This document shows positions 26,628 through 44,102 of a stretch of 62,771 nucleotides of DNA, one piece after another. This stretch comes from a virus (lineage: Duplodnaviria > Caudoviricetes). The stretch's first letter is position 1, and the number at the start of each line of letters is the position of its first letter. Made by a program: the position numbers and the translations under genes. The notes under the pieces are model-generated. The model saw nothing but the letters and a program-made list of their open reading frames with translations. It was not told the origin of the DNA and searched no databases. Where the stretch lies: positions 1 through 62,771 of IMG/VR virus record IMGVR_UViG_3300036980_000377; one strand, written 5' to 3'.

Positions 26628-26840
26628 TTGGAAAACACAGACTCTTTCCGGATCCACGTTTTTAAGCTTGAAGGTGAAGCTATTATTTACGTAAAGGCTA
26701 ACTCAATTGAGGAAGCCCAAAACGCTGCGCTCCGAAAAGCTAAGGAGTTAACCTATACACCAAGTCGAGCTCCGTATATGGCGATCGCTTTTGAGGGGCT
26801 TGAAGAGGTTAGTTCACATCAGGAGGAAATTGACGTATGA
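26628..26840 (+). CDS. hypothetical protein
   Basis: AGGAG RBS; VKANSIEEA. Confidence 0.55.
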   Translation: MENTDSFRIHVFKLEGEAIIYVKANSIEEAQNAALRKAKELTYTPSRAPYMAIAFEGLEEVSSHQEEIDV

Positions 26841-27706
26841 AATACAGTTTAGGCTGGAGACCCGATCTTCCCGATTTTCGGGATTACACAGATCAAAATG
26901 GAAAAACCCGAGCACTCCTTCAACCTCTAGGTGTACCGGAAATACCTCAAGCTTTAAAGCCGTTTGTAGACAATCGTCAGTTTTGCTCCCCGATTGACGA
27001 CCAAGGCGGACTCGGATCTTGTACTGCTCACATGGGAGTAGGGATGCTTGAGTATTGTGAGTTCAAATCCTTCAAGAAGTTCATCCATGGCTCCCGCCTC
27101 TTTGTCTATAAGGCAACTCGAGACTACGCCGGATATACTGGTGATAGTGGGGCCGAGATTCGAAACACCCTTGGTGCTCTCGCTTTATACGGCGTGCCCG
27201 CCGAACGACTGTGGCCCTATACTGATGATCAACGTCAGTTCGATATTAAACCCCCCGTCGACGTCTACATTGCTGCTCAGAGTTATCAAGCGGCACAGTA
27301 CGTGAGATTGGATTATGCTGGAATTAATAATGAAGTCTTACTCCATAAGATCAAAGCCTATCTTGTCGCCGGCTTCCCTGTAGGCTTTGGCTTTTCCGTT
27401 TATAAGTCAATTGATCAAGCTGATCATGATGGCCGAATCCCCTTCCCCGGAGACACTGAAGAGATGGAAGGAGGCCATGCGATTATGATGGTTGGATTCG
27501 ATGATAGTATGGTAATCCCTAACAATGTCTATAGTATCTCAACGCGGGGAGCCTTTCTTATTCGCAACTCTTGGGGTACTGGTTGGGGTGATAAGGGGTA
27601 TGGGTGGCTTCCTTATGATTATGTTCTTAGAGAACTCGCAGAAGATTTTTGGGTTCTATTAAAGACCGAATGGCTTGATACTCAGCAATTCGGATTTAAA
27701 GATTAA
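26837..27706 (+). CDS. papain-like C1 cysteine peptidase
   Basis: DQGGLGSCTA, GGHA, RNSWGTGWGDKGY. Confidence 0.93.
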   Translation: MKYSLGWRPDLPDFRDYTDQNGKTRALLQPLGVPEIPQALKPFVDNRQFCSPIDDQGGLGSCTAHMGVGMLEYCEFKSFKKFIHGSRLFVYKATRDYAGYTGDSGAEIRNTLGALALYGVPAERLWPYTDDQRQFDIKPPVDVYIAAQSYQAAQYVRLDYAGINNEVLLHKIKAYLVAGFPVGFGFSVYKSIDQADHDGRIPFPGDTEEMEGGHAIMMVGFDDSMVIPNNVYSISTRGAFLIRNSWGTGWGDKGYGWLPYDYVLRELAEDFWVLLKTEWLDTQQFGFKD

Positions 27707-27777
27707 GGAGGGAATGACATGAAACGTAAAGGTTGTGGTGTCTAAATAATTAACCCTAACAAGAAGGAGAAGTAAAC

Positions 27778-28239
27778 ATGAGTAAAAAGATCTTAAAAAA
27801 GGTATTGGTGTCTATGCTCGCACTTGTGTTTGCATCAGCCGCCTTTGCTGGTTGTTGTACATGGACTGCAACCGATGGGACTGAGACTAAATCGTTTTCT
27901 AACTGTTTTAAAACAGCCCAAGACAAGGCTTGCAATCCTCCTGTAGCTGTCATGACTGTGATCAATGCGGCTGCTCCTTTAATCGCTTCGATTTTGAATC
28001 TTGCGGTTCCCGGCTCTTCTGTTTTCATTTCAGCGAGTAATGCCCTACAGTGGGTTACAACTCTCCAAAAAACTGGCTGTCTCGCTCTTACTGATTTAAA
28101 CAAACTGATCGCTTATCTCCAGAGTGCGGACTTTACACAAGGTCAAGCACTTGTTGCTACATCCCAAATGAAGAAGGGGCTACACGCAGCAGCACCAATT
28201 GAAGTTCAACCATTGGTTGATTGGAAAGCGAAATACTAA
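27778..28239 (+). CDS. secreted or lipoprotein, function unknown
   Basis: Basic N-terminus, hydrophobic stretch, FAGC; AAGGAG RBS. Confidence 0.65.
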   Translation: MSKKILKKVLVSMLALVFASAAFAGCCTWTATDGTETKSFSNCFKTAQDKACNPPVAVMTVINAAAPLIASILNLAVPGSSVFISASNALQWVTTLQKTGCLALTDLNKLIAYLQSADFTQGQALVATSQMKKGLHAAAPIEVQPLVDWKAKY

Positions 28240-28251
28240 AAAAGGTATACA

Positions 28252-28710
28252 ATGAGAATCTTCCAACGAATTATTGGGGTGCCCGGAGTTGGTAATCTCG
28301 GAGCTGTTAAAGATGGAGCGATCTATCGCTCCGCGCAGCCTGAAATTTATGAAGCTCTACCCCAATACTTAGGGATAAAATCTGTTCTATATCTTCGCGA
28401 AGATTCTAAGCAAACTGAGGTTGAGGCGGCGGGAATGAAGTTTTTCTCCTTCCGCCTCAACGTCTTTTCTGATATCACCTTTGATGACTTCGATCTACTC
28501 TCAATGACTATGGCTGATCCCGAAAATCAACCAATACTAATTCAATGACTGCAGGGTCATGATCGCACAGGGGTCGCCTGTGCAGCATACAGATTAAAAG
28601 TAGATAAATGGTTGTTAGAAGAAGCACTCGAGGAAATGGACTCTTACGGATTTAATGAGTTGTGGCTTACATTAAAGCACCATCTAACTGCTTATGCTAA
28701 GTCACTTTAA
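28252..28710 (+). CDS. Cys-based protein-tyrosine/dual-specificity phosphatase fold protein with putative catalytic selenocysteine (UGA 28546-28548), 152 aa
   Basis: IYRSAQP, LGIKSVLYLR, PILIQ-(UGA)-LQGHDRTG = CX5R(T) motif; frame stays open for 53 more codons to TAA 28710, directly before the next RBS. Confidence 0.85.
28565..28583 (+). promoter_or_regulatory. putative bacterial SECIS hairpin
   Basis: GCACAGG-GGTCG-CCTGTGC perfect 7-bp stem starting 16 nt after the UGA; loop begins with G. Confidence 0.65.
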
Positions 28711-28721
28711 TCAGGAGGCGT

Positions 28722-29660
28722 ATGGACTTACCCGCTTTAATTGTTGGAGATCTACATCTAGATGAACGAAATCTCCATCTCTTCCGAATTTTAAAACAAC
28801 AACTAAAAGAATACGAAGAGCAAGTCCCGTCCCTTGTTCTCATCGGAGATATCTTTAATTCGCCTGACTCCGTTAGGTGGATTTGTCTACTTGAGTTCAT
28901 TGAGTTTTTAGAAGATACTAAGTTTGAAGTTTACATGCTTACTGGAAATCATGATAGGCCGATGTATGGACAAATGCTTTCAAACCTTTCCACTTTCAAT
29001 CGTTATGGTCACGTCATTAAGTCACCTTGCGTCACTGGGGACTCTGTGGTTTGGTTGCCTCATATTGGTGAACAGGCAAGTCTCGACTTCATCAAAGAAA
29101 CGCCGGGTAGAGTTTGTTACTCTCATCAGATGATCCGGGGATTAATGCTAAATGATAAAGTCGCGACAGCTCAAGGTCTTGATAAGAAAGAATTTCAACA
29201 ACAGTACGAATTTACATTTAATGGACATATTCACCATCCACAGATCGAAACAAATTTTTTTAATATTGGATCCCCTTGGCAACACACTTTTACAGAAGCT
29301 GGTCAGAGGAAATTTATTTGGCTCTTTACTGGCGATAAAGCAGTTCCCGTACAGTGTAAGGTCGATTCACAGTATCTTGTCGGCTTTTTTGAAGACCTCC
29401 AACAGGAAAACTTTGAAGGCAAATCAATCAAGATCTACTTACAATCTGGAGATAACATACAATCAATCGCTGCCTTCCTTGAATCGCACGGCGCAACCAG
29501 GTGGGTCTTTGTTCAAACCCCGAAAACACAAGAACACTCTCAAGAGGAATATCGAACCCCGAAAGCTTCGTTAGACGAACTTGTAGTTGACTTTGGATTT
29601 AGGAAGGATCTATCACTAGATGATATTCTCATGGGACTCCAGTTCTTGGACGATCGATGA
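28722..29660 (+). CDS. sbcD: SbcD/Mre11-like nuclease
   Basis: GDLH, GDIF, GNHD, GHIH, IGSPWQHTFTE. Confidence 0.88.
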   Translation: MDLPALIVGDLHLDERNLHLFRILKQQLKEYEEQVPSLVLIGDIFNSPDSVRWICLLEFIEFLEDTKFEVYMLTGNHDRPMYGQMLSNLSTFNRYGHVIKSPCVTGDSVVWLPHIGEQASLDFIKETPGRVCYSHQMIRGLMLNDKVATAQGLDKKEFQQQYEFTFNGHIHHPQIETNFFNIGSPWQHTFTEAGQRKFIWLFTGDKAVPVQCKVDSQYLVGFFEDLQQENFEGKSIKIYLQSGDNIQSIAAFLESHGATRWVFVQTPKTQEHSQEEYRTPKASLDELVVDFGFRKDLSLDDILMGLQFLDDR

Positions 29661-29876
29661 CAGTCAAAGAAGCTGTCGAAATTATTATACTGATTGTAAT
29701 CGTGGTGGGGATTCTATGGGCCAAACGTCGTCGTTGAGGATTTTTATGACATCGGGGACTGACTTCTTCCAAATTTTCCGTGGTCCGGGTCCTCCCGAAT
29801 TTTTTAAACTTGTGATCACTTTATTCCATTGGGAGCCCGGCGGGGGTTTTTTCAACAGTAGTTTCAGGCCTCAGGT

Positions 29877-31690: not shown

Positions 31691-33037
31691 ATGTCAACTA
31701 TTCCATGGCCCAAGATTCGACCTGATCGCCAAATTCACTCCGCAGAGCAAATCTTAATCGGGAGTCTTCTAATGAACCCTGGGAGACTCACACGGTATGA
31801 GCAGAATATTATTTACCATGAAGAGCCTTTAAATGGCGCTGACTTTGAGCATCAGCAGTGGAAGACTCGTTACTTTTCTATGTGGGGTGGAAAGCTCACC
31901 CACAGCTCGGGACTCTCGTTCATAGTCCCTGAAAATATTTGTGTAAGGTTTAGCTGCGGAACAATCTTAAGTGGTGACACCTCACATTTAATGCCGATGC
32001 TTGATGATTTCGGTCTAGCTAATTGGTTTATGGAAAGTGGAGTAGTCTTAAGTAGCCGCCCTGAAATTTATCTTCCCCTGCCTCCGAGCTGGCGTTCTCA
32101 GAAGGGGGTTATGGAGAAACTTTTTAGTCGATTCGATGCCTTCGCAGACGTTAAAGGATTTCTTTCGATTCAAGATGTTGGTACATTTAAAGATGTTATC
32201 TTTCCAAACGTGATCCCATCTAAGCGATATAAGTTCAAGCATCTCAACGAAGAGATGCACGATGTCTCTAAGACGTCAACCCTGTCAGTCGGAATTCAAA
32301 AAGTAGGGATTAGGCAGGTTCCAATCCCCTTGAATATTCACTTGAAAGATCAAATCCAACCTACGATCGCTAAAGCTTCGATCTATACGGATTTAAGTGA
32401 AGACGTAATGGGCTCTCACCTAAGTAGACTCCTCGAAGTTCTTGATAAGGTTTCGTGCGATGTAGTCAGCACAGATTTACAAACAATGGAGTTGTATCTT
32501 AACACCTTAAAGGAAAGACTCAATGCCACGAACGCGTATTTAAAATTACGGTTTCCAATACTTCTTTCACAGCTCGCCCCTGTGACAGGAATTCCAGGAC
32601 ATATTCGATATGAATGTACCCTCTCAGGTGAGATTGATAGTGGTGATCTCAAAGTCTTCAAAACAATTCGTGTACCATATATGTCTGCTTGCATCTGTTC
32701 TAAAAGCATTTCACTCTTTAACGCCCACTGTCAACGATCGTTTGCTGATGTTACGCTTCTTCTAAAAGATAGCGACGTCCCATTTGAAGAACTTGTTGAG
32801 ATCGTTGAACATTCATGCTCCGCACCTATCAGAGCCACCTTAAAGAGAGAAGATGAAAAGTTCATTACTGAACAGGCGTACGACAGGGCAGGCTTTGTAG
32901 AAACAATCAGCCGACACATTGCCAAGCAACTGGACAATTTAAGGGTTAGAGGCTGGTTAGTTGTTTGTGAGCATGAAGAAAGTTTACACCAACATAATGC
33001 AGTCGCTCTCATCCGAGGCGGTGAGTATATTCCCTGA
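31691..33037 (+). CDS. folE2: GTP cyclohydrolase IB (FolE2) fused to an N-terminal degenerate LAGLIDADG-like domain
   Basis: C-terminal IQKVGI, GSHLSRL, SACICSK, AHCQRS, LKREDEK, FVE, EESLHQHNA; N-terminal ILIGSLL, GLANWFMESG, IPSKRYKF. Confidence 0.85.
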   Translation: MSTIPWPKIRPDRQIHSAEQILIGSLLMNPGRLTRYEQNIIYHEEPLNGADFEHQQWKTRYFSMWGGKLTHSSGLSFIVPENICVRFSCGTILSGDTSHLMPMLDDFGLANWFMESGVVLSSRPEIYLPLPPSWRSQKGVMEKLFSRFDAFADVKGFLSIQDVGTFKDVIFPNVIPSKRYKFKHLNEEMHDVSKTSTLSVGIQKVGIRQVPIPLNIHLKDQIQPTIAKASIYTDLSEDVMGSHLSRLLEVLDKVSCDVVSTDLQTMELYLNTLKERLNATNAYLKLRFPILLSQLAPVTGIPGHIRYECTLSGEIDSGDLKVFKTIRVPYMSACICSKSISLFNAHCQRSFADVTLLLKDSDVPFEELVEIVEHSCSAPIRATLKREDEKFITEQAYDRAGFVETISRHIAKQLDNLRVRGWLVVCEHEESLHQHNAVALIRGGEYIP

Positions 33038-34218: not shown

Positions 34219-34293
34219 GCGGGATTAACTCAATTGGTAGAGTGCTAGACTGCCAGTCTGGTAGTACGGGTTCAAGTCCTGTATCCCGCTCCA
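34219..34293 (+). tRNA. tRNA-Gly(GCC)
   Basis: Cloverleaf; CTAGA-CTGCCAG-TCTGG; encoded CCA. Confidence 0.92.
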
Positions 34294-34299
34294 CCTTTA

Positions 34300-34376
34300 T
34301 GCGGGTTAGCCTAGGGGTCTAAGGCGTGTGGCTCATAACCACAAAATCATGAGTTCGAATCTCATACCCGCTACCA
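34300..34376 (+). tRNA. tRNA-Met(CAT), initiator-like (1:72 mismatch)
   Basis: TGTGG-CTCATAA-CCACA; T1/T72; encoded CCA. Confidence 0.88.
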
Positions 34377-34490
34377 TTTTCATCACGATCGATTGTCCCA
34401 ATATCTGGAACAGATTGTTTCGTATATCAAGAGTAAAGGCTGCTTCCCAATTCTGGGGTAGCGGTAAACTTTTAGGTCACTTCTTTGGTT

Positions 34491-34670
34491 ATGAAAACAG
34501 GTCGAGTCAGATTCAAAAGATTCCTTGATAAAGTTCTTAAGTGTGAAGTCTGTAATCACTCTATGATTGTCAACCGCATGCCAAGTAGAAACAGACGTTC
34601 AGGACATATTAAACATATGTACTGTCCTAAGTGCCAAGAAACTACAGCGCATGTAGAGCAACCAATTTAA
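34491..34670 (+). CDS. bL33-like zinc-ribbon protein
   Basis: CEVC...KHMYCPKCQETTAHVE resembles the L33 pattern KKYCPxCxxHTxHxE. Confidence 0.55.
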   Translation: MKTGRVRFKRFLDKVLKCEVCNHSMIVNRMPSRNRRSGHIKHMYCPKCQETTAHVEQPI

Positions 34671-34685
34671 GGGGGGGGATAGTCG

Positions 34686-34952
34686 ATGTTCGTGTGGGTG
34701 ATCGTTGAGCCGATCTTAATGATTCTCGCCGCGATTTTTATTATCACGCAAGTCGCGGTGCCCGCGTGGAAAAACACGCCAACCTTTCCCCTCATCCGCC
34801 AAGTTCTCAAACGCCGTCGAGTGGCAGAAGAGAAGATGCGGGTGCTTAAAGCTACTAAAGAAGTTCAAAAGTTGGAGAAGTCCGCAGCAGTTTTAGAAGC
34901 GGAACTCCATGAAAAGCCCAAACGCCGTAAACCCACTAACAAAGGAGAGTGA
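34686..34952 (+). CDS. membrane protein upstream of SPFH gene
   Basis: N-terminal TM segment followed by coiled coil. Confidence 0.65.
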   Translation: MFVWVIVEPILMILAAIFIITQVAVPAWKNTPTFPLIRQVLKRRRVAEEKMRVLKATKEVQKLEKSAAVLEAELHEKPKRRKPTNKGE

Positions 34953-36160
34953 TATTTATGCTTAGACGGCCCGTTCTACTAGTGGTCAGTGTCTTACTGG
35001 TCATCCTGTTCTTCTCTTGCGCGGGAATGCTCTTTGAAAATGTCCCCGCAGATCAGATCGCGGTTATCCAATCACCGATCGCTGGAACTCTTGACTGGTA
35101 TCCTGATCAGGGTTTAAAGTGGCAAGGCTTTGGCAAAGTCACTTACTACCCTAAATCCGTCCAATATTGGTTCTCCGCGTCGGGGGATCAGGGAAAGAAA
35201 GTTGACGAAAGCATTAAGATTCGGTTCAATGACGGCGGTGACGGACGAATCTCAGGCTCCGTGCGTCTTGACTTACCTCGAGATAAAGAACACTTGGATT
35301 TAATCCATACTAAGTTCGGGAGTGCGGAAGCTTTGATGCATGAGCTCGTTCGTCCTCTCTTCGAGAAAGCTATTTATATGAGTGGCCCAATGATGTCGTC
35401 AGCCCAGTCTTACGCTGAACGGCGGAATCAGCTCATTGGCTACATTGAAGACCAAGCATCTCGTGGCATCTACCGTACCACCATGAAGGATGTTCGGGGT
35501 AAAGATCTTATCACCGGCGCCGAGAAGACGATCACTGTCGTCGAGTTGGTTATGGATCCTAAATCCCCCAACGGTATCGCTCGAGAGGAAGAGTCTCCAC
35601 TATCTTCATTTGGGTTGAGGGCTTATAACCTTTCAATCAACGCCATTAATTACTCCCCGATCATCGACAAGCAGATCGCCACCCAGCAAGAAGCTTTCAT
35701 GAGCGTACAAACGGCCATGGCTGAAGCTAAGCAGGCGGAGCAGAGAGCTCTAACGGCAGAGCAACAGGGACGAGCAAATGCTGCTACGGCTAGATGGGCG
35801 CAGGAAGTTATCAAAGCCAAGTTTGTCACTGAAGCTGAGCAGCATCTTAAAGTGGCAGAACTCGATGCCCAAACGGCCGCCCAACGTAAGAAAGAGCAAA
35901 TCCTTTTGGGTGAAGGTGAATCTCAACGGCGTCAACTGCTCATGGCCGCGGATAACCAATTGGAGATCAAGCTCGCAGCTTGGAAGGATGTTATGTCGAA
36001 GTTTGCCGACCAGATCGGCAAACAACAATGGGTGCCTCAAATCCAGCTGGGCTCTGACGGAAAATCTGGGGGTAGCGCAGCGATGGACTTGATCACACTC
36101 TTAACCGCTAAAACGGCTAAGGATCTCAACTTGGATCTTTCGCCGACGAAAAAGCAGTAA
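34949..36160 (+). CDS. SPFH/band-7 domain membrane protein
   Basis: N-terminal TM, IRFNDGG, Ala/Glu/Gln-rich coiled coil. Confidence 0.85.
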   Translation: MIFMLRRPVLLVVSVLLVILFFSCAGMLFENVPADQIAVIQSPIAGTLDWYPDQGLKWQGFGKVTYYPKSVQYWFSASGDQGKKVDESIKIRFNDGGDGRISGSVRLDLPRDKEHLDLIHTKFGSAEALMHELVRPLFEKAIYMSGPMMSSAQSYAERRNQLIGYIEDQASRGIYRTTMKDVRGKDLITGAEKTITVVELVMDPKSPNGIAREEESPLSSFGLRAYNLSINAINYSPIIDKQIATQQEAFMSVQTAMAEAKQAEQRALTAEQQGRANAATARWAQEVIKAKFVTEAEQHLKVAELDAQTAAQRKKEQILLGEGESQRRQLLMAADNQLEIKLAAWKDVMSKFADQIGKQQWVPQIQLGSDGKSGGSAAMDLITLLTAKTAKDLNLDLSPTKKQ

Positions 36161-36182
36161 AAGGTTACTACCTCGTGTCGAA

Positions 36183-36221
36183 GGGGAATCTCCTCTGGCT
36201 CAGGGGATTCCCCGATTTTTT
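36183..36221 (+). terminator. rho-independent terminator
   Basis: GGGGAATCTCCT...AGGGGATTCCCC followed by a T run. Confidence 0.8.
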
Positions 36222-36240
36222 ATGCATCCATTATTTTCCA

Positions 36241-36288
36241 CCTTTTATTCATCCCAATTGAGCAATTATAATTATAATAAAAAATTAT
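36241..36288 (+). repeat. direct repeat copy 2 (promoter-like)
   Basis: Near-identical to 33600-33648; lies between a terminator and ATG 36290. Confidence 0.8.
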
Positions 36289-36289
36289 C

Positions 36290-36571
36290 ATGAAATGTCT
36301 CCGCTGCGGGTACTGTTGTATTCATTATAATGTTATTATAGTAAAGCCGGGATATAAACGTATCACTAGGGCATCATTAATATACAAGCCGGGTGGTCAG
36401 CATTGTCCTCATTTAGTCTTTAACAAAGCTATAGCAACATGCGTGATTCACGATAAACCATTTTATAAGCGAACTCCTTGCTTCGAGTTTACTCAAATCG
36501 AAGCTTCACCTGAAGATGATTGTAGAATTGGAGCCGGGATTAGAGATAATAGGATCAAGCTAAATGCATAA
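36290..36571 (+). CDS. YkgJ-like cysteine-cluster protein
   Basis: CLRCGYCC...CPHL...CVIH. Confidence 0.7.
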   Translation: MKCLRCGYCCIHYNVIIVKPGYKRITRASLIYKPGGQHCPHLVFNKAIATCVIHDKPFYKRTPCFEFTQIEASPEDDCRIGAGIRDNRIKLNA

Positions 36572-36776
36572 TTGGGTAGAAAGTTTAGTAACATGGCTAA
36601 TAACTTCTCTTGCTGTTCTTCAATGTATTGCCGTGGCGGTAGGTTTATATCAAGAAAACAAAATTGCGGAGTGTAAAGCTGCAGTAGCAATACTTGGTAC
36701 ACTTGACCTTCATTTGATAAGGATTCTTTGGATTGGACATCTTGGACTTCAAAAGGAGGGGCACGAATGGCTCTAA
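36564..36776 (+). CDS. small membrane protein
   Basis: Hydrophobic ORF. Confidence 0.45.
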   Translation: MHNWVESLVTWLITSLAVLQCIAVAVGLYQENKIAECKAAVAILGTLDLHLIRILWIGHLGLQKEGHEWL

Positions 36777-37069
36777 TAGGTTTTTGCTACTCAGTGGCTC
36801 AATTCTTTTTAGGTGTTTTCTTTATTCTCGCGTGTGTAGTTGCGCTCGTAGTTGGAGTGATCGGCCTAGTATTGTTATGTACTCCTTTCCCGTACTTTCC
36901 GATTCATCGGGAATTTCTTATCCGGTTTTGGACTTTTGTAGTGACAGCAAGCTTCTTTGCAAACGACTATGGACATAAGTCCGAGTGGGATAAAGTTAAG
37001 AGTGAAATGAGACAACTTTCTTCTTGGCAGACCGCCAAGAATGTCATACACTTAACTAAAGAAGATTAA
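36767..37069 (+). CDS. membrane protein
   Basis: AGGAGG RBS; hydrophobic N-terminal half. Confidence 0.55.
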   Translation: MALIGFCYSVAQFFLGVFFILACVVALVVGVIGLVLLCTPFPYFPIHREFLIRFWTFVVTASFFANDYGHKSEWDKVKSEMRQLSSWQTAKNVIHLTKED

Positions 37070-37072
37070 CGT

Positions 37073-37148
37073 CGGGATGTGGCGCAGTTGGTAGCGTGCA
37101 TGCTTTGGGAGCATGATGTCGGGGGTTCAAGTCCCTCCATCCCGACCA
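37073..37148 (+). tRNA. tRNA-Pro(TGG)
   Basis: CATGC-TTTGGGA-GCATG; CCA. Confidence 0.93.
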
Positions 37149-37156
37149 TTAATTGA

Positions 37157-37230
37157 GCGGGTGTAATTCAATGGTAGAAGAACAGCCTTCCAAGCTGTTA
37201 GTGTCGGTTCGAATCCGATCATCCGCTCCA
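37157..37230 (+). tRNA. tRNA-Gly(TCC)
   Basis: ACAGC-CTTCCAA-GCTGT; CCA. Confidence 0.92.
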
Positions 37231-37380
37231 AGAGGGTAGTATGATTTGGAACTGGCATAATAAAATCAGTTTTCTTAAAAGCGGACTTCGAATCATCGGG
37301 TTTATATTTTTGCCCTTCAACCTTTTCCCCTCAGCTGTCTTATTAGTATTAGCTGAAGTGTTTGGAGTTTTGGAAGAGTT

Positions 37381-38064
37381 ATGGTGAAAGTTGTCTTCTG
37401 CGTTCCAGGGCAAAGTTTTTCAAACACGTTTTTACAGTGCTGGACCGATTTACTTTTAGCGTGTCCACAACTTAAAGTGCAACCAATTTGCCCCGTATTT
37501 CCATATATTAGCAATGTTTATATTTCACGTAACGTTTGCTTGTTAGGGCAGCCTGAGAGGGGTATTGAACAAAAACCCTTTCAAGGAAAAATTGCTTATG
37601 ACTATTTGATGTGGATTGATTCAGATAGTGAATGGACTATTCAAGATTTTAAACGTCTTTTAGATATATTAGAAGCAAACAAACATATGCACATCTTATC
37701 GGGTGTCTATATGCATGGAAATGGAGAAACATTAGTAACTCTTGACGACGAAGGGGATTTATTATTACCTATAGATCTTGATGGAATGCCCGAAGTAGTA
37801 AGAATGCCCCATACTGGAATGGGGTTTATGTTAGTAAGAAGTGGTGTATTTGAATATATTAAATACCCTTGGTTCGTCCCGATACTTCCAACGGACGAAC
37901 AAGGTAATGTAATTGATATAATGGGAGATGACATTGCTTTTTGTGAGCGGGCAAGACAAGTAGGATTTATTACTTGGATTGCAACAACGGTTCGTATTGG
38001 TCATGAGAAATCAAGAATCTTGAGGGTGCCAAATGAGCGAGCAAAAATTATATGTTCACAGTAA
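37381..38064 (+). CDS. GT-A fold glycosyltransferase-like protein
   Basis: SRN, YLMWIDSD, TGMGFMLV, YPWF, GDDIAFC, IGHEK. Confidence 0.8.
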   Translation: MVKVVFCVPGQSFSNTFLQCWTDLLLACPQLKVQPICPVFPYISNVYISRNVCLLGQPERGIEQKPFQGKIAYDYLMWIDSDSEWTIQDFKRLLDILEANKHMHILSGVYMHGNGETLVTLDDEGDLLLPIDLDGMPEVVRMPHTGMGFMLVRSGVFEYIKYPWFVPILPTDEQGNVIDIMGDDIAFCERARQVGFITWIATTVRIGHEKSRILRVPNERAKIICSQ

Positions 38065-38236
38065 GTGCTGTAACTCGCACTGGGAATTATGCTATGAAGA
38101 TGGAGAGTGGTCGCTCGAATGTGAAGGATGTGGAAAAAGTGCGGGCTCAACATTTAAAGTGGAGGGACCATCTCTTGAAGGCTGTCAATGTGAGACCTGC
38201 AAGGCAGAAGGAAGTAAACCTCCTTCACGACACTAA
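38033..38236 (+). CDS. small Cys-rich protein
   Basis: GAGGG RBS; CC, CEGC, CETC. Confidence 0.55.
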   Translation: MSEQKLYVHSKCCNSHWELCYEDGEWSLECEGCGKSAGSTFKVEGPSLEGCQCETCKAEGSKPPSRH

Positions 38237-38432
38237 GTGTCCTCTTTGTGGTAAGCCCCAAAGAGTGAATCAAACATATACGACAACTATTTGTGAAGGT
38301 CAAGAGTGTACACGATGTAGGGGAAAGTTTGTCTCGATATATATTTTAGGTTTTTGTAATTTATGTTCAAACAGAGTTGAATGTTTACCTTTTCCAACGA
38401 TTGAATTTTTATACGACGCTTCTGTGGAGTAG
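38052..38432 (+). CDS. Cys-rich paralog family member (true start probably near 38190)
   Basis: CPLC...CTRC...CNLCSNRVECL. Confidence 0.6.
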   Translation: MFTVSAVTRTGNYAMKMESGRSNVKDVEKVRAQHLKWRDHLLKAVNVRPARQKEVNLLHDTKCPLCGKPQRVNQTYTTTICEGQECTRCRGKFVSIYILGFCNLCSNRVECLPFPTIEFLYDASVE

Positions 38433-38497
38433 CTCAATGGCAGAGTCCCCGACTGTTAATCGGGTTGTTGAAGGTTCGAGCCCTTCCTCCACAGCCA
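38423..38497 (+). tRNA. tRNA-Asn(GTT)
   Basis: CCCGA-CTGTTAA-TCGGG; CCA. Confidence 0.92.
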
Positions 38498-38751
38498 GTT
38501 GGAACATTAAAACAGGTCTAGCTGGAGTTAGTTCATATCCGCTAGTTTACGTGCGAGACTGTCCATATTGTAATTACGAATTGGACATAGAGCAATTCTG
38601 GTTTGATGGACCCATTAAATGTGTCTTAGAGCTTTGTCGGTATTGCGAGCGAGAATTCATCGCGGTCTTTATAAAAACGGCATGTACAATTTGTGAACAC
38701 CGAATTGATTGCCTCTGTTGGAAGATGGTCTATATAGAGGAGACCAAGTGA
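38437..38751 (+). CDS. Cys-rich paralog family member (start uncertain: ATG inside tRNA-Asn or GTG 38551)
   Basis: CPYC...CRYC...CTICEHRIDCL. Confidence 0.6.
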   Translation: MAESPTVNRVVEGSSPSSTASWNIKTGLAGVSSYPLVYVRDCPYCNYELDIEQFWFDGPIKCVLELCRYCEREFIAVFIKTACTICEHRIDCLCWKMVYIEETK

Positions 38752-38984
38752 CTGAGTGGGAGTGCCCAATTTGCAACTCCCAGAAATGGGAACCAACAAA
38801 AGAACTTTGTGAATTTTCAACCATGGGATTTGGTAAAAGTGATCCCTCGGCGTGTATCAGACTCAAATGTCATAAGACTGGAAAATTTTACTATTTAGTA
38901 TTTAACAAGGTTGAATGTCTCGTATGTACTAATCCAGAGTATTGCGAGCCGTACCCAAAACAATTTAAGTTCCACAGTTATTAA
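38748..38984 (+). CDS. Cys-rich paralog family member
   Basis: GAGGAG RBS, GTGA overlap; CPIC...CLVCTNPEYC. Confidence 0.6.
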   Translation: MTEWECPICNSQKWEPTKELCEFSTMGFGKSDPSACIRLKCHKTGKFYYLVFNKVECLVCTNPEYCEPYPKQFKFHSY

Positions 38985-38985
38985 A

Positions 38986-39062
38986 GGGGCCCTAACTCAA
39001 TTTGGAAGAGTGTCGCCTTTGCACGGCGGAAGTTGAGGGTTCAAGTCCCTTGGGCTCCACCA
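38986..39062 (+). tRNA. tRNA-Ala(TGC)
   Basis: G3:U70 acceptor pair; TTTGCAC loop; CCA. Confidence 0.92.
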
Positions 39063-39107
39063 GATTTAAACAACTGTTTTACATGGTACTACTTATTCCA
39101 TTTTTAT

Positions 39108-39183
39108 GGTGGGTGTAGCCATTAGGTAAAGGCACTGGGATGTGGCCCCAGTAATGTGAGTTCGAGTCTCATCACTCACCCCA
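39108..39183 (+). tRNA. tRNA-His(GTG)
   Basis: G-1; CTGGG-ATGTGGC-CCCAG; CCA. Confidence 0.9.
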
Positions 39184-39186
39184 TAC

Positions 39187-39397
39187 GGGAGGGAGAAGGA
39201 TCTAAGTACGGAAGGGCTATACACGAATTGCCTAATGGCTCAGATAAGGCCTTTGGAAGGCTTTCAATCTCAGCGTCAGTAGCTGAAGCTTTTGACCTTC
39301 CAGCCTTTCTCAAACGTTAAGAGTTACGACCTCCGGGCGATATCAAAACTTACCACTTCGCACTTAGCTCTTCTCGAAAGGGTTCTTCAACCTCCCA
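39187..39397 (+). ncRNA. 6S-RNA-like long hairpin with central bubble
   Basis: Nested helices GAGAAGG/TCTTCTC, CTAAGT/ACTTAG, GAAG/CTTC, then a bubble, then AAGGC/GCCTT, TGGAAGG/CCTTCCA, TCAGC/GCTGA. Confidence 0.55.
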
Positions 39398-39419
39398 TCA
39401 CTTTTAAAGGAGAGAGACC

Positions 39420-39626
39420 ATGGCTGAAAAAGGAAAAAAAGGTAAAGAGGTTAAAGCGGTTGAGGAGCCCAAAAAGTCTTATGGGCGTGTGCGCCCTTGT
39501 AATTGTGAACACACCTTTCAGGATAAGGAGTACGGTAAAGGTATGAGGCTTCACACTGAGGCGAAAGGGGGCTCCGTAGACCAGGTTAAATACCGCTGCA
39601 CAGTCTGCCTGTCAATGAAAAGCTAA
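39420..39626 (+). CDS. small zinc-binding phage protein
   Basis: AAGGAG RBS; CNCEHTFQDKEYGKGMRLH...RCTVC. Confidence 0.7.
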   Translation: MAEKGKKGKEVKAVEEPKKSYGRVRPCNCEHTFQDKEYGKGMRLHTEAKGGSVDQVKYRCTVCLSMKS

Positions 39627-39719
39627 AAATGTTTTATAACTTTTTTATGGCCGGATCAATACTCTTAGTAATTACTCTAGGAGTATACGGCTACACAAAA
39701 TGTTAGGGGGTTTAAGTTT

Positions 39720-40238
39720 ATGGTCATCGCCGAAGCACTAAACGAAATTAAAGACTTGGAGAAGCGTCGTCGGGATATCCAAACCAAGCTTCGTGGAAAC
39801 ATTTATATCCTCCCAGATCTCGAGGAAGGAGAGAAGCCGGATTCTTTGGAAGTTCAAATGGCTGAGCTTCAAGAAGTCGTCGCTAAAATCTCCGACTTGA
39901 GAATGCGTCTTATCAATACGAACGTGGCAACTAAAGTAGAGGTTGCGGACGCTGGGGGATTAAAAGTTACTATGACGTTAGTAAAGGCAATCAAGCACAT
40001 TGAGAATTGTCGGTACTATGAGACACAACTTAATGAGATTGCTGACGCTATGGAGAATAAAGGTTCCCGCTTCTATGATCGCGGCAACTACATGTCTCAA
40101 GGTGAGCCTATCAAGTTGGCTCCCAATTTTCAAACAACGTCCAAAGTCCTTAGACTGAGATCTCAGGCACACCGCGAAGATGCCCGCCGGACGGAACAAG
40201 CTTTAATTAAGGCGAATTGGAGTACGCCGATCGTATGA
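39720..40238 (+). CDS. coiled-coil protein, DIP1984-like
   Basis: MxIAEAL N-terminus, INTN, IKANWST C-terminus. Confidence 0.6.
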   Translation: MVIAEALNEIKDLEKRRRDIQTKLRGNIYILPDLEEGEKPDSLEVQMAELQEVVAKISDLRMRLINTNVATKVEVADAGGLKVTMTLVKAIKHIENCRYYETQLNEIADAMENKGSRFYDRGNYMSQGEPIKLAPNFQTTSKVLRLRSQAHREDARRTEQALIKANWSTPIV

Positions 40239-40252
40239 GCGAAGAGAAAAAA

Positions 40253-40328
40253 TGGGGAGTAGCTCAACTGGTAGAGCGCCGTCCTTTGGAGTCGGATGTT
40301 GGAGGTTCAAGTCCTTCCTCTCCAGCCA
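40253..40328 (+). tRNA. tRNA-Gln(TTG)
   Basis: U1-A72; CTTTGGA loop; CCA. Confidence 0.9.
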
Positions 40329-40518
40329 TTATCATTACAACTTTAAGACCAGAGTTCCTTGATTGTATTCCTCAAGACTCAATAGGTGTACTTGAAAAGG
40401 AGTTCGGAAGATTCAAAACTAAGTGGATATCCATTCTACCGATCACAAAAGCGATGTTAGACGAAGGGATTAAACCCGGTGATTTATTTACATCTGGATA
40501 TTTTTATATGGATTAAAA

Positions 40519-40595
40519 GCCAGCGTAGCTCAGCAGGCCAGAGCGGAAGTTTTGTAAACTTCGGGTCGGGGGTTCGATTCCTCTCGCTGGCTCCA
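40519..40595 (+). tRNA. tRNA-Thr(TGT)
   Basis: GAAGT-TTTGTAA-ACTTC; CCA. Confidence 0.92.
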
Positions 40596-40606
40596 CCCCA
40601 ATAACA

Positions 40607-40789
40607 ATGTTATCAAACTTGAAAATACAATGTCACCATTGCTTACGTGAGAGGGTAACCTTACGTGAGCATATGCAGTTGGGTGGAATCTGTCCCGCGT
40701 GTAATAAATACATAGTGATAGACTTTGAAAATGTACCGTTAGATGAACTTATAAAGGCGATCATTAATTTAGAAACTGGGCCGGTGTAA
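40607..40789 (+). CDS. small zinc-ribbon protein
   Basis: CHHC...CPAC. Confidence 0.5.
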   Translation: MLSNLKIQCHHCLRERVTLREHMQLGGICPACNKYIVIDFENVPLDELIKAIINLETGPV

Positions 40790-40853
40790 CCAAATGGCCG
40801 GGTGTTAGGTTGCAACCCTAACTACGCAGGTTCGATTCCTGTCGCCGGCTCCA
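40780..40853 (+). tRNA. tRNA-Cys(GCA)
   Basis: TTAGG-TTGCAAC-CCTAA; U73; CCA. Confidence 0.9.
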
Positions 40854-40865
40854 AAAGGAACTATT

Positions 40866-41060
40866 ATGCTATGTCAGAGTTGCGAATTGCGCGAAGCTAC
40901 TCAGTCCTTCGCGCAGGATGAAATGAGTTTCATTCATGGAATGTCTCAACAGTGGTGTGATCACTGCGTTATCTCTACTCAACTAGATTTCGCGCGAAAG
41001 TCCGCTGAAAGAATTCCCGAGCTTGAAGAAGCGTTACGTAAATTAAATGAGCCCGAGTAG
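40866..41060 (+). CDS. small zinc-finger protein
   Basis: AAGGA RBS; CQSC...CDHC. Confidence 0.55.
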   Translation: MLCQSCELREATQSFAQDEMSFIHGMSQQWCDHCVISTQLDFARKSAERIPELEEALRKLNEPE

Positions 41061-41136
41061 CCGAATAGGTATAGGCGTCTGGTTGAGGGCCAGATACTCC
41101 TGGAGTGTGTAGGTTCAAGTCCTATCTCGGGCACCA
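41051..41136 (+). tRNA. tRNA-Leu(GAG)
   Basis: TCTGG-TTGAGGG-CCAGA; long variable arm; CCA. Confidence 0.9.
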
Positions 41137-41152
41137 ATATTATGAGGATTTA

Positions 41153-41413
41153 ATGCCCCTGCTACATTGCAATTCCTGTCACCATGAATGGGAAGGTCGA
41201 CTTAACTCTAAGTGTGACTGGTGTGGAGACTCGGGAAATGTCCTGGAAGAGAAGACTTCTTTGGAAAGGTTTATGGAGGGGGACTTAAAGGGTTTTATTG
41301 AGCGTTGGAAAAAGGAACGCTTGAATATCAAACCCGAACCAATTTTTGGTGAGACTATCAGAGGTGCAATCCGAATCGTTCGGGACTTCAAGGCGAGACG
41401 TAAAAAGGATTAG
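41153..41413 (+). CDS. small zinc-ribbon protein
   Basis: GAGG RBS; CNSCHHEWEG...CDWC. Confidence 0.6.
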   Translation: MPLLHCNSCHHEWEGRLNSKCDWCGDSGNVLEEKTSLERFMEGDLKGFIERWKKERLNIKPEPIFGETIRGAIRIVRDFKARRKKD

Positions 41414-41498
41414 CTCGGGTGGTGGAATCAGGCAGACACATCTGGTTTAAGCCCAGATGCCGAAAGGCGTGCGGGTTCAACTCCCGCCTCGAGCACCA
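41413..41498 (+). tRNA. tRNA-Leu(TAA)
   Basis: TCTGG-TTTAAGC-CCAGA; variable arm; CCA. Confidence 0.92.
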
Positions 41499-41813
41499 AT
41501 GAAAAGAAAACATAAACTACATACGATGGAGTGGTGGTTTGTTAAGAGCAGACAAATCCCGATTCATTTTAAATGTCCATGTTGTAGTAAAAGGATTGAA
41601 TACAACGTGAACGTTTTTTGGAGCCACAGTATGTTGAATGTTTGCCCACATTGCTCTCAAGAATTTAACCTTTGCTTTGATTGCGGGTGCCCATGTCGAG
41701 ATCGGCTTGATTGTTTAACGATTCCAAGCGTTGGATCCATTTGGGTTGATCCCGTCTTTATTCATTATATATGCGATGATCCGTGGATTAAAAAACAGCA
41801 GGCTCTCAAGTAG
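41499..41813 (+). CDS. Cys-rich paralog family member
   Basis: ATG directly after the tRNA CCA; CPCC...CPHC...CPCRDRLDCL. Confidence 0.65.
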   Translation: MKRKHKLHTMEWWFVKSRQIPIHFKCPCCSKRIEYNVNVFWSHSMLNVCPHCSQEFNLCFDCGCPCRDRLDCLTIPSVGSIWVDPVFIHYICDDPWIKKQQALK

Positions 41814-42052
41814 TGCAAATAAGAGTCTATTGCCCCCACTGTGAAGAGTTAGAAGTTCGCAACTTCGACTTTCGCGGGTGGATGAAAAACGAAAAATGCT
41901 TTCAAGTTTATTGTTTAAGAACCCGAATTCCATATAAAATAGTTTTTGATCGAGTCCATTGTCTTATATGTAACTGTGAGGATAAAAAAGTGAGCCCAGC
42001 GAAGAAAACCAAAAAACAGTCCCGTAAGTGGGCTCGTAACTCAACAGGTTAG
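41813..42052 (+). CDS. Cys-rich family member (divergent)
   Basis: CPHC...YKIVFDRVHCLIC, similar to 38748 and 48111. Confidence 0.55.
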   Translation: MQIRVYCPHCEELEVRNFDFRGWMKNEKCFQVYCLRTRIPYKIVFDRVHCLICNCEDKKVSPAKKTKKQSRKWARNSTG

Positions 42053-42105
42053 AGTACATGACTTTTAATCATGAAGCGGAGGTTCGAGTCCTCCCGGGCC
42101 TACCA
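42030..42105 (+). tRNA. tRNA-Lys(TTT)
   Basis: CATGA-CTTTTAA-TCATG; CCA. Confidence 0.92.
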
Positions 42106-42120
42106 ATAAGGAATTAAGAA

Positions 42121-42369
42121 ATGCGACTCAATGTGTGTAAGAAATGTCCAGATAGAGACGCGGAGTGTCTTTCTGAGGGAGAGTGTAGACACAAATTTTG
42201 TGTCGTATGTGCATTTCACCGCCGAAAGCTTTTCTTTTGGCATAAATGTTGCTCACCCCAGCTTTGCCATGCAATAACTGGACGAGCTAAAATGAGTTGT
42301 CATGAAGCACGAAAGTGGAGTTCAAATTGTGGCCATGAAGGTAACCTTTTTAAGTTGAGAGGAACTTAA
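42121..42369 (+). CDS. Cys-rich protein
   Basis: AAGGA RBS; CKKCPDRDAECL. Confidence 0.55.
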   Translation: MRLNVCKKCPDRDAECLSEGECRHKFCVVCAFHRRKLFFWHKCCSPQLCHAITGRAKMSCHEARKWSSNCGHEGNLFKLRGT

Positions 42370-42560
42370 TGAAATCCCCATATGTAGGCACATTTGTCGG
42401 TTGGACTGACAAAGCAATTGAGTGTTTGGTTCAAGCAAGTGGTGTAGCTCGAGCTGCTCGTGATGATGAGGTAGAGGCTCTTATAGACCAGGCAAGAAAC
42501 TTGCTTCATAAAGCTAGGCAAAAAGCAAGCGATCAACCTGAATCAAAAAAGGTCCTGTAG
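42369..42560 (+). CDS. hypothetical protein
   Basis: GAGG RBS; TAATG coupling. Confidence 0.55.
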   Translation: MKSPYVGTFVGWTDKAIECLVQASGVARAARDDEVEALIDQARNLLHKARQKASDQPESKKVL

Positions 42561-42625
42561 CTCAACGGTTAGAGCAGACTCCTTATAAGGGTCAGACTTA
42601 GGTTCAACTCCTAACGGGACTACCA
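42551..42625 (+). tRNA. tRNA-Ile(TAT)
   Basis: GACTC-CTTATAA-GGGTC; A73; CCA. Confidence 0.88.
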
Positions 42626-42626
42626 A

Positions 42627-42702
42627 GCCCCCGTAGTTCAGAGGATAGAACAACTGCCTTCTAAGCAGTAAGTCGCAAGTTCGAGTCTTGCCGGGGGTGC
42701 CA
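42627..42702 (+). tRNA. tRNA-Arg(TCT)
   Basis: ACTGC-CTTCTAA-GCAGT; CCA. Confidence 0.92.
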
Positions 42703-42708
42703 AATATT

Positions 42709-42787
42709 GAGCCCACATGTTCCAAGGACTTGGCGAGTTGGTCTCCAAAACCGACTGTGGTAGGTTCGATTCCTACTGGGTTCGCCA
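42709..42787 (+). tRNA. tRNA-Trp(CCA) with atypical D arm
   Basis: TTGGT-CTCCAAA-ACCGA; G73; CCA. Confidence 0.82.
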
Positions 42788-42788
42788 T

Positions 42789-42862
42789 AGTCCCGTAGCT
42801 CAATGGTAGAGCGCGCGGCTGATAACCGTGATACACAAGTTCGACTCTTGTCGGGACTACCA
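42789..42862 (+). tRNA. tRNA-Ile(GAT)
   Basis: CGCGG-CTGATAA-CCGTG; CCA. Confidence 0.92.
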
Positions 42863-42872
42863 AATTTTTATT

Positions 42873-43088
42873 ATGGGAAAGTCATACACAGGAAGACCCT
42901 TATGTGATGTCTACTGGCACTTCAGAGATGGACTGCCTTGGAGAAGACATTACAAACCATATTACAAGCCGAGTAAGTGGTTTAAGAAGTTACGCATCGC
43001 CAGAGTCAGAGCTCAAGAGAAGCAAGCTCTTAGGAGGGGACGAGAACTTCCCGTTAATAGGAAGGTTGATATTTGGAATTGGAATTAG
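42873..43088 (+). CDS. small basic protein
   Basis: KPSKWFKK...RAQEKQALR...WNWN. Confidence 0.55.
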   Translation: MGKSYTGRPLCDVYWHFRDGLPWRRHYKPYYKPSKWFKKLRIARVRAQEKQALRRGRELPVNRKVDIWNWN

Positions 43089-43172
43089 GAGGAGTGGCCG
43101 AGTGGTTAAAAGCGGCGGGCTGTAAACCCGCTCTCTCTGAGTTCGGAGGTTCGAATCCTTCCTCCTCCACCA
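43088..43172 (+). tRNA. tRNA-Tyr(GTA)
   Basis: GCGGG-CTGTAAA-CCCGC; variable arm; CCA. Confidence 0.92.
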
Positions 43173-43176
43173 CTTT

Positions 43177-43476
43177 ATGACAACAAGAATTAATGAACCA
43201 CATGGCACTTGGTATTGGGAGGCCACGGCCAAGAATAAATCGTATGAATGGAATCCTCCCGGCTTCCCTAGTACCCAACGACAGTGCTTTTCGTGGAAGT
43301 GGAAGACGAATTTAAAACAGAACTGCGAGACCTGCAAATTACGAGTCGAGTGCCTAACAGTTGAAAGCTCGAAGTGCTCGATGATTTTAGAAACGCGGAT
43401 CACTTTGAGTGAAATTACTGGTATGGTAGATGAGTACGAAGGCTTTAAAAGATTTCCATATGAGGTGAAAGAATGA
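43177..43476 (+). CDS. protein with CxxC-x5-C motif
   Basis: CETCKLRVECL. Confidence 0.6.
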   Translation: MTTRINEPHGTWYWEATAKNKSYEWNPPGFPSTQRQCFSWKWKTNLKQNCETCKLRVECLTVESSKCSMILETRITLSEITGMVDEYEGFKRFPYEVKE

Positions 43477-43646
43477 TCTGGATGTGCAAAGTGTGCAAAG
43501 GAAAAGAGTCCGCTTGGAGTTTACCTGGAGAGGAAGAGGTTATTCTTTATTGTAATGAATGTAAAGAGGAGAGACCGTTTGAGCGGTGGAAGCATGGTCC
43601 ATCTAAAGAAGCTGAAACGGAAGATGTTTTTCTGATAGAATAAATT

Positions 43647-43734
43647 GGAGGGATGGCCGAGTACGGCTTAAGGCGGCGGTCTTGAAAACCGCAGGGTGGA
43701 AGCCCCGTGGGTTCGAATCCTACTCCCTCCGCCA
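43647..43734 (+). tRNA. tRNA-Ser(TGA)
   Basis: GCGGT-CTTGAAA-ACCGC; variable arm; G73; CCA. Confidence 0.92.
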
Positions 43735-43739
43735 ATCTT

Positions 43740-43814
43740 CGTGGAAGTACAACGGACAAGGCTCTGGCTCGTAATCAATCGAGGTGGGAAGCGAGTGGTT
43801 GACCAACTTCCACG
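43740..43814 (+). ncRNA. unassigned 75-nt structured RNA between tRNA genes
   Basis: 9-bp closing stem CGTGGAAGT/ACTTCCACG; internal CAAC/GTTG and CTCG/CGAG. Confidence 0.4.
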
Positions 43815-43832
43815 TTAGTTAAATGAAAATAT

Positions 43833-43910
43833 GGCGAGATAGCTCAGTTGAGGTAGAGCGCGGGCCTGAAGAGTCCGGCGGCCTTGGTTCAACTCCAAGT
43901 CTCGCCACCA
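43833..43910 (+). tRNA. tRNA-Phe(GAA)
   Basis: CGGGC-CTGAAGA-GTCCG; CCA. Confidence 0.9.
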
Positions 43911-43918
43911 GCTTATGC

Positions 43919-44005
43919 GGAGAGTTGGCCGAGCGGTTGATGGCAACGGTTTGCTAAACCGTCGAGGTAATACTCACGCAGGTTCGAATCCTGCACTCTC
44001 CGCCA
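43919..44005 (+). tRNA. tRNA-Ser(GCT)
   Basis: ACGGT-TTGCTAA-ACCGT; variable arm; CCA. Confidence 0.92.
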
Positions 44006-44018
44006 ACTAATAGTCATT

Positions 44019-44102
44019 GGGAGTGTGGCGGAATGGCAGACGCGCTAGCCTTAGGAGCTAGTAGAGAAATCTGTGGGGGTTCAAGTCCCCCCTCTCCCAC
44101 CA
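44019..44102 (+). tRNA. tRNA-Leu(TAG)
   Basis: CTAGC-CTTAGGA-GCTAG; variable arm; CCA. Confidence 0.92.

Follow-up and report, generated by a model that had tools for sequence, protein, structure and literature searches.

An in-frame UGA at the nucleophile position of a phage TpbA/Siw14-like phosphatase gene points to a probable bacteriophage selenoprotein

By analysing a stretch of viral DNA from the IMG/VR collection (IMGVR_UViG_3300036980_000377; hereafter "the window", which is the entire linear record of 62,771 bp, with an estimated completeness of ~40%), we found a phosphatase gene at 28252-28710 on the plus strand that carries an in-frame TGA exactly at the codon of its catalytic nucleophile (28546-28548). 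This gene probably encodes a phage-borne selenoprotein with selenocysteine (Sec) as the catalytic nucleophile, a reading drawn from sequence comparisons to which we give a probability of roughly three in four. At the nucleophile, unlike at any other position of this enzyme, no residue but Cys or Sec can function. Moreover, the features by which bacterial selenoprotein genes can be tested computationally, as described in the main text of a 2026 review (PMC13188914), are all present here: a Cys/Sec pair, conserved flanks, UGA-containing homologues and a bacterial-type Sec insertion sequence (bSECIS).

The whole read-through gene comprises 152 codons and a TAA. The open reading frame (ORF) that stops at the TGA (28252-28548) begins with ATG at 28252 and ends with ...PILIQ, after which the same frame continues as LQGHDRTGVACAAYRL... 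up to TAA 28708-28710, giving a read-through product of 152 residues (P0001) in which the TGA is codon 99. After the TAA come AGGAGG and, at 28722, the ATG with which an SbcD-like gene begins. An earlier reading of this DNA, made from the letters alone (the sequence-only reading), had described this arrangement of a stop after PILIQ and an open frame reaching TAA 28710 just before the next ribosome-binding site, and all of it is in the sequence. It had also placed the UGA on the nucleophile of a CX5R(T) loop and had called the protein Siw14/DSP-like (DSP, dual-specificity phosphatase). Read-through yields U-L-Q-G-H-D-R-T, a C(X)5R(T) signature whose nucleophile position falls on the TGA, and codon 99 aligns with the catalytic Cys of Pseudomonas aeruginosa TpbA, the residue replaced in the C132S mutant of entry 4r0t; this bears out the first point.

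With C standing for U, the product matches the family PF03162 (Y_phosphatase2) over residues 17-136 with 37.5 bits (cut-off 27; E = 2.4e-9), and its best solved relatives are TpbA (9e-10), Arabidopsis PFA-DSP1 and yeast Siw14. An AlphaFold2 model built with 30 homologues (pLDDT 87.8, pTM 0.84) shows a DSP-type alpha/beta fold, with the phosphate-binding loop (P-loop) between a central strand (95-98) and a helix (103-116), and the top Foldseek matches in the PDB are again TpbA, AtPFA-DSP1 and Siw14 (TMq 0.75-0.77, E 3.6e-8 to 1.8e-6). G102, R105 and T106 of the P-loop are present and conserved, the Cys-nucleophile feature itself holding only if Sec or Cys is inserted at the TGA. The conserved segment LNVFSD...FD contains D74 and D81, candidates for the general-acid Asp on the loop upstream of the P-loop, and D74 aligns near an Asp of TpbA in the sequence alignment. 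Together, family and fold place the product in the TpbA/PFA-DSP (Siw14) branch of the cysteine-phosphatase superfamily, and the Siw14/DSP-like label was right at the level of the family.

The TGA is genuine, being neither an error nor a fresh nonsense mutation. First, it is present in assemblies of other sequencing runs: Logan contigs of run X2 (28200-28760) and run X3 (28362-28760), which come from two further studies, match the window with 0 differences; this decides between TGA and TGT or TGC in favour of TGA. Run X2 was flagged as near-identical and may share its origin with the window DNA; in the contigs of runs X4 and X5, the TGA falls outside their coverage. Second, the same TGA occurs in two independent contigs. 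L002, a metagenome contig of 6.5 kb, encodes a phosphatase with 87% amino acid identity in which the TGA occupies the corresponding codon and the frame likewise stays open behind it; the contig is syntenic with the window over six genes, with identities of 73-88% for the C1 peptidase, a 153-residue lipoprotein-like ORF, the phosphatase, SbcD and SbcC. L003, a 7.8-kb contig with 35% GC, has only the phosphatase in common with the window, and this protein, at 56% identity, has the TGA at the catalytic codon as well (...PILIH-TGA-LQGHDRTG...). A sequencing or assembly error in the window, for which nothing speaks, is refuted by these contigs. At the protein level only, a further homologue (P0009; 85% identity, three contigs, the longest of 31 kb) ends at the same residue as the ORF of the window.

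The sequence-only reading had proposed a check for Cys/UGA pairs among homologues, and such pairs exist, with the TGA kept at 87% and 56% identity and Cys in more distant relatives. In four loci (L004-L007) the nucleophile codon is TGT or TGC, and the remaining homologues examined, which are at most 64% identical to the window protein, have Cys at that codon. Cys is nearly invariant at the nucleophile column among the 27 full-length or C-terminal rows of our alignment A1.

The frame behind the TGA (codons 100-152; 28549-28707, plus strand) encodes the P-loop segment GHDRTG and the C-terminal helices, which are conserved in the Cys homologues, and it is under purifying selection. Between the window and L002, whose phosphatase genes are 81% identical in DNA, the Nei-Gojobori method gives a dN/dS of 0.114 at a dS of 0.78 for these 53 codons, without any stop or indel, and a dN/dS of 0.054 at a dS of 1.43 for codons 1-98. 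The 18 codons 3' of the TGA encode identical peptides despite six synonymous changes. Given that the downstream frame is conserved and that the first in-frame start past the TGA is a TTG at 28612, translation must pass through the TGA, which removes both the pseudogene and the split-gene readings. The downstream frame has therefore been translated over evolutionary time. A nonsense pseudogene, in which a Cys codon became TGA, translation yields nothing beyond the 98-residue N-terminal fragment and the rest of the frame decays, would need a single base change from TGT or TGC, and gene callers do truncate the four TGA-type proteins (P0003, P0006, P0009 and P0140, stored as fragments of 98-112 residues). 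This explanation is nevertheless very unlikely in view of the selection just described, of L003, where at 56% identity the whole C-terminal half still aligns with the Cys homologues, and of the persistence of the TGA in two lineages while flanking codons on both sides underwent synonymous changes.

An in-frame TGA in a conserved gene could also mean that TGA is a sense codon in the code of the phage or its host, namely Trp (table 4) or Gly (table 25). However, the stops of 97 crude gene models in the window are 33 TGA, 48 TAA and 16 TAG. Since TGA ends 33 of the 97, the genome is not recoded, and the sequence-only reading was correct in treating UGA as an ordinary stop elsewhere. Only in the phosphatase gene does a conserved continuation of the frame beyond a TGA fill an otherwise empty gap, two other candidates for such a gene (43177-43638 and 52115-53239) being without support. 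Besides, Trp or Gly as the nucleophile would kill catalysis. Hence, we regard a reassigned code as scarcely credible.

The two other candidates were also considered as second selenoproteins. At 43177-43638 (plus strand), a 99-codon ORF ends at a TGA and is followed in frame by S-G-C... and 52 more codons up to the next tRNA gene. This UxxC look-alike was rejected: neither a Pfam family nor a homologue in phages was found for it, and a SECIS-like fold is lacking; 52115-53239 turned out to be two ordinary ORFs.

Downstream of the TGA in the phosphatase gene lies a SECIS-like hairpin (28565-28583, plus strand), formed by GCACAGG (28565-28571), the loop GGTCG (28572-28576) and CCTGTGC (28577-28583), with 7 perfect pairs. 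The hairpin starts 16 nt and its loop 23 nt after the TGA. Folded alone, it has an energy of -13.2 kcal/mol and a z-score of -2.47 against shuffles, 6 of 200 shuffles being equally good. The bSECIS model in Fig. 2 of PMC13188914 sets a loop of 3-9 nt, a stem of 4-16 bp, a G in the first two loop positions, a distance of 16-37 nt from UGA to loop and a minimum free energy of -7.5 kcal/mol or lower. Judged by these quoted constraints, the hairpins of all three TGA-type genes lie within the model and stand in the same register. The sequence-only reading, which had described a 7-bp hairpin 16 nt downstream with a G-initiated loop and bacterial SECIS geometry, agrees with the quoted model in this respect.

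The hairpin is identical in the window and L002 (loop GGUCG, 7 bp, 23 nt, -13.2 kcal/mol each), and that of L003 has the loop AGUUG, a stem of 5 and 3 bp separated by a G.G mismatch, the same 23 nt and -11.4 kcal/mol. Over the three genes, pairing holds in 20 of the 21 cells. The compensatory change is at pair 5, which is A-U in the window and L002 and C-G in L003; on one side the change is synonymous (Thr), and on the other it replaces the otherwise nearly invariant Cys110 by Gly. Counted in register, the TGA-type genes have 7, 7 and 6 Watson-Crick pairs against a maximum of 5 in 25 distinct Cys-type genes, a control that leaves out L017, L020 and L027, in which the motif pattern was unmatched, and the duplicates L001, L018, L022 and L034. 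Finally, codons 103-111, which cover the hairpin, carry zero synonymous changes between the window and L002 while flanking codons on both sides carry some (P ~4e-4 for a place named beforehand).

Several observations weigh against reading the gene as a selenoprotein. First, the hairpin is short, and it is less surprising than a random 7-bp stem because the peptide R-T-G-V-A-C-A by itself fixes 3 of the 7 pairs. The G.G mismatch of L003 falls at pair 2 and leaves 6 of 7 pairs in register. One of the 25 Cys-type genes, L009, reaches 7 of 7 pairs once two G-U pairs are counted, and the corresponding segments of two others, L024 (-12.9 kcal/mol) and L032 (-16.0 kcal/mol), form more stable folds of other shapes. 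A run of 9 unchanged codons anywhere in the gene has a P of ~0.09. The covariation over three sequences is equalled by 160 of 500 shuffles, so that, of the covariation looked for in the hairpin, the kept register and one compensatory change stand and statistical significance does not. Second, the 66 homologues that we detected in 56 of 401 genomes, from the phylum of the deltaproteobacterial metagenome-assembled genome (MAG) described below, include none with an in-frame TGA and one with TAA; with 0 of 66, this sample offers no cellular precedent. Third, neither the main text of PMC13188914 nor its family table lists a selenoprotein with a protein tyrosine phosphatase (PTP) fold, and a seleno-phosphate intermediate is therefore a proposal only. 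Fourth, no RNA runs are listed among the runs that hold the stretch, and tblastn searches with the portal and DNA-polymerase proteins returned only matches below 30% identity, from phages of many hosts, from which no host can be deduced. Fifth, neither selD, selB nor selA was found in the 62.8-kb fragment, and tRNA-Sec is missing among the 21 tRNAs called by ARAGORN, with nothing at the Rfam gathering score. The sequence-only reading had reported this lack of Sec machinery, and we confirmed it for the window, that is for ~40% of the genome.

The lack of Sec machinery in the window also suits the main rival explanation, a programmed or leaky read-through in which a near-cognate tRNA puts a standard residue at UGA-99 without selenium, and to which the weak UGA-C context, and perhaps also the hairpin, would contribute. 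The base after the TGA is indeed C (TGAC) in 3 of 3 TGA-type genes, and the phage has candidates for such a tRNA, namely its own tRNA-Cys(GCA) at 40780-40853 and an odd tRNA-Trp(CCA)-like gene at 42708-42784. Moreover, purifying selection downstream shows that the codon is read through, not which residue is inserted. With Cys, the outcome would be an ordinary phosphatase of low abundance; with Trp, it would be a dead form that still binds the substrate. However, the UGA stands on exactly the Cys that Sec replaces in known pairs of selenoproteins and Cys homologues, as far as the main text of PMC13188914 describes them. TGT or TGC would serve Cys better, and yet the TGA outlived a near-saturating synonymous divergence and a protein divergence down to 56% identity. 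A product with Trp would not need the fully conserved P-loop GHDRTG, and the hairpin has the geometry of a bSECIS. Taken together, near-cognate decoding appears improbable, although it deserves more weight than any other alternative to a selenoprotein.

The tRNA genes of the window lie in a cluster at 34219-44102 (plus strand), which comprises 21 genes, or 22 with the Trp-like one, with small ORFs interspersed, and which covers most amino acids. No suppressor tRNA with a UCA anticodon was found in this cluster. The Trp-like gene (42708-42784, plus strand) lies between tRNA-Arg and tRNA-Ile and was not called by ARAGORN; it has a discriminator G and an encoded CCA, its D stem is long and bears an unusually small D loop, and its anticodon stem has 6 bp. 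Its best Rfam score is to tRNA-Sec, below the threshold, and we rejected it as a tRNA-Sec (RF01852, 31.5 bits against a gathering score of 47) with its CCA anticodon and short variable arm.

If the gene is a selenoprotein gene, its decoding would proceed as follows. In a Sec-competent host, the hairpin past UGA-99 would recruit host SelB with Sec-tRNA(Sec), Sec would be inserted and the full-length enzyme made, while ribosomes terminating at UGA-99 would release a 98-residue fragment without the P-loop, expected to be inactive. That Sec is the inserted residue, that host SelB reads the hairpin and that the enzyme is active are steps that we infer. Selenols have a low pKa. The residue before the nucleophile, which is His in the HC(X)5R signature of the Cys homologues, is Gln98 in the window (28543-28545, plus strand): in alignment A1 it is Q in the window, L002 and P0009, H in L003, and H in 26 of the 27 Cys-type rows, the remaining one (P0021) having S. 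Gln98 in the clade of the window would fit a nucleophile that needs no tuning of its pKa, which, with His kept in L003, is only a hint.

The phosphatase gene is found on otherwise unrelated contigs. In a maximum-likelihood tree of 43 rows, the window, L002 and P0009 form a clade (100/99), and L003 belongs to the same 27-row group (94/92), inside an unresolved polytomy. The best tree has two changes of state between Cys and TGA, and a single origin is also compatible with the data. Searching for further TGA-type genes with two degenerate DNA patterns gave 0 matches in the viral contig collection, the record of the window excluded, and a related-locus search with the single protein found no relative. 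By using the alignment A3 as a query, we found four relatives in viral contigs, with Cys in the three that were read (L019, L021 and L018, the last being identical with L005); in the fourth, L020, the motif codon was outside the count. An N-terminal profile run against 1.84 billion protein representatives gave 109 matches. Among distant members, P0058, P0075 and P0136 end exactly before the position of the catalytic Cys, and two of them have N-termini resembling signal peptides. These are leads at the protein level only, which may be TGA-type genes, possibly cellular, or contig ends; the end of P0136 may be a contig end because it stands alone on a contig of 641 bp.

Among genome-binned homologues, the nearest is carried by a contig of 13,983 bp from a deltaproteobacterial MAG, in which selB is present. 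We dropped this MAG as a clue to the host because its contig shares only the phosphatase gene with the window. More generally, the closest genome-binned Cys-type homologues come from this deltaproteobacterial MAG (L006/L034, G001:C146) and from a Melainabacteria MAG (L007, G002), and both MAGs encode selB above the NCBIfam cut-off.

We lean towards a wider reading, in which the phage enzyme is both the first bacteriophage selenoprotein and the first PTP-fold selenolate phosphatase, and in which the switch arose in phage genes. Catalysis would then go through a phospho-seleno intermediate, and the change from Cys to Sec would have occurred within phage genes once or twice. Such a switch would have been easy because the RTGVACA codons are near-palindromic, a SECIS needing only changes at wobble positions. 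The literature is compatible with this novelty within the scope of our searches. Full-text searches found no paper on a phage selenoprotein, supplementary family lists being outside their scope. The viral selenoproteins named in an excerpt of PMC8310308 are two poxvirus glutathione peroxidases, from molluscum contagiosum and fowlpox viruses, and according to an excerpt of a marine survey (PMC9402790), the selenoprotein families examined there have no or very few viral sequences. The word "phosphatase" is absent from the main text and family table of PMC13188914, whose supplementary lists were outside scope and whose tabulated families are mostly redox or sulfur-transfer enzymes, and it is absent from the BSepDB paper, whose full family list (Additional File 1) was likewise outside scope. 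Where the GOS paper (PMC2398784) uses the word, it means a PP2C domain that is fused to a peroxiredoxin, not a Sec phosphatase.

Four known systems resemble the gene in part. First, TpbA (PDB 4r0s, 4r0t, 2m3v) and the PFA-DSP/Siw14 proteins (PF03162) share its fold and the P-loop x-C-x-x-G-x-x-R-T-G, but have TGY instead of TGA at the nucleophile codon and, compared with the clade of the window, His instead of Gln before it. TpbA is periplasmic; in contrast, the window protein has no signal peptide, is phage-borne and is only ~26% identical to TpbA. Second, bacterial genes with a SECIS inside the ORF, of which formate dehydrogenase is the classic case in the bSECIS model as given in the main text of PMC13188914, likewise have a UGA aligned with the Cys of homologues and a stem-loop directly downstream in the coding region. 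The window gene differs from them in that it sits on a phage without Sec machinery in the part seen, and its product is a hydrolytic phosphatase, not an oxidoreductase. Its SECIS also overlaps the codons of the P-loop helix, where the peptide is already prone to a palindrome. Third, rhodanese and Cdc25 loops are related to PTP loops. The rhodanese-like and arsenate-reductase selenoproteins of PMC13188914, compared by their description in its main text, would similarly have Sec in an active-site loop that binds phosphate or another anion, but they belong to other folds and families (PF00581 and TIGR00014, versus PF03162) and transfer sulfur or act on arsenate instead of being phosphatases. Fourth, the poxvirus glutathione peroxidases are also virus-borne and use the Sec machinery of the host, and the fowlpox SECIS lies in the coding region (excerpt of PMC8310308); unlike the window gene, with its bacteriophage carrier, bacterial-type SECIS and phosphatase product, they belong to viruses of eukaryotes, have a eukaryotic-type SECIS and represent a captured cellular redox enzyme.

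Nearly all long ORFs of the window are on the plus strand, and its gene content includes a terminase large subunit, a portal protein, a head protease, a family-A DNA polymerase and DnaB-like and other helicases. All runs containing the stretch carry the label of a sediment or freshwater-sediment metagenome. A blastn search with 27700-29700 found no match among 50,697 phage records, and tblastn with the phosphatase gave two matches only in deposited phage records, at 26.5% identity, and no close relative. On its 5' side, the phosphatase gene adjoins a region at 26837-28239 (plus strand) that encodes a papain-family C1 peptidase (PF00112) and then the 153-residue ORF, whose signal is of the lipoprotein type, with a lipobox-like ...FAGC; the synteny with L002 takes in these two genes and the phosphatase gene. 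Further downstream, 31691-33037 (plus strand) encodes a protein of 448 residues, in which a FolE2-type GTP cyclohydrolase I (PF02649, 6e-61) occupies the C-terminal 250 residues, behind an N-terminal extension of ~188 residues without assignment; this gene is a possible sign that the phage engages in nucleotide metabolism related to 7-deazaguanine or folate. At 53239-55737 (plus strand), the window encodes the terminase large subunit (832 residues), of which ~430 N-terminal residues are without assignment. An ORF of 890 residues at 58290-60962 (plus strand), between the portal region and the head protease, contains an ATP-dependent DNA ligase domain at residues 68-256.

The proposed decoding follows the established bacterial mechanism, and the novelty lies in the phage that carries the gene and in the family of the enzyme. 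If the selenoprotein reading is true, bacteriophages can carry selenoprotein genes and use the SelB system of their hosts, and PTP-fold phosphatases join the selenoprotein families. Oxidative inactivation limits Cys phosphatases, and a hydrolytic selenolate enzyme would be a natural test of what Sec brings beyond redox chemistry, for example resistance to such inactivation. Since gene callers systematically truncate such genes, phage selenoproteins may be under-counted. Finally, the full-length enzyme would be tied to the Sec system of the host and to the supply of selenium, which would give the phage a built-in sensor of the type or state of its host.

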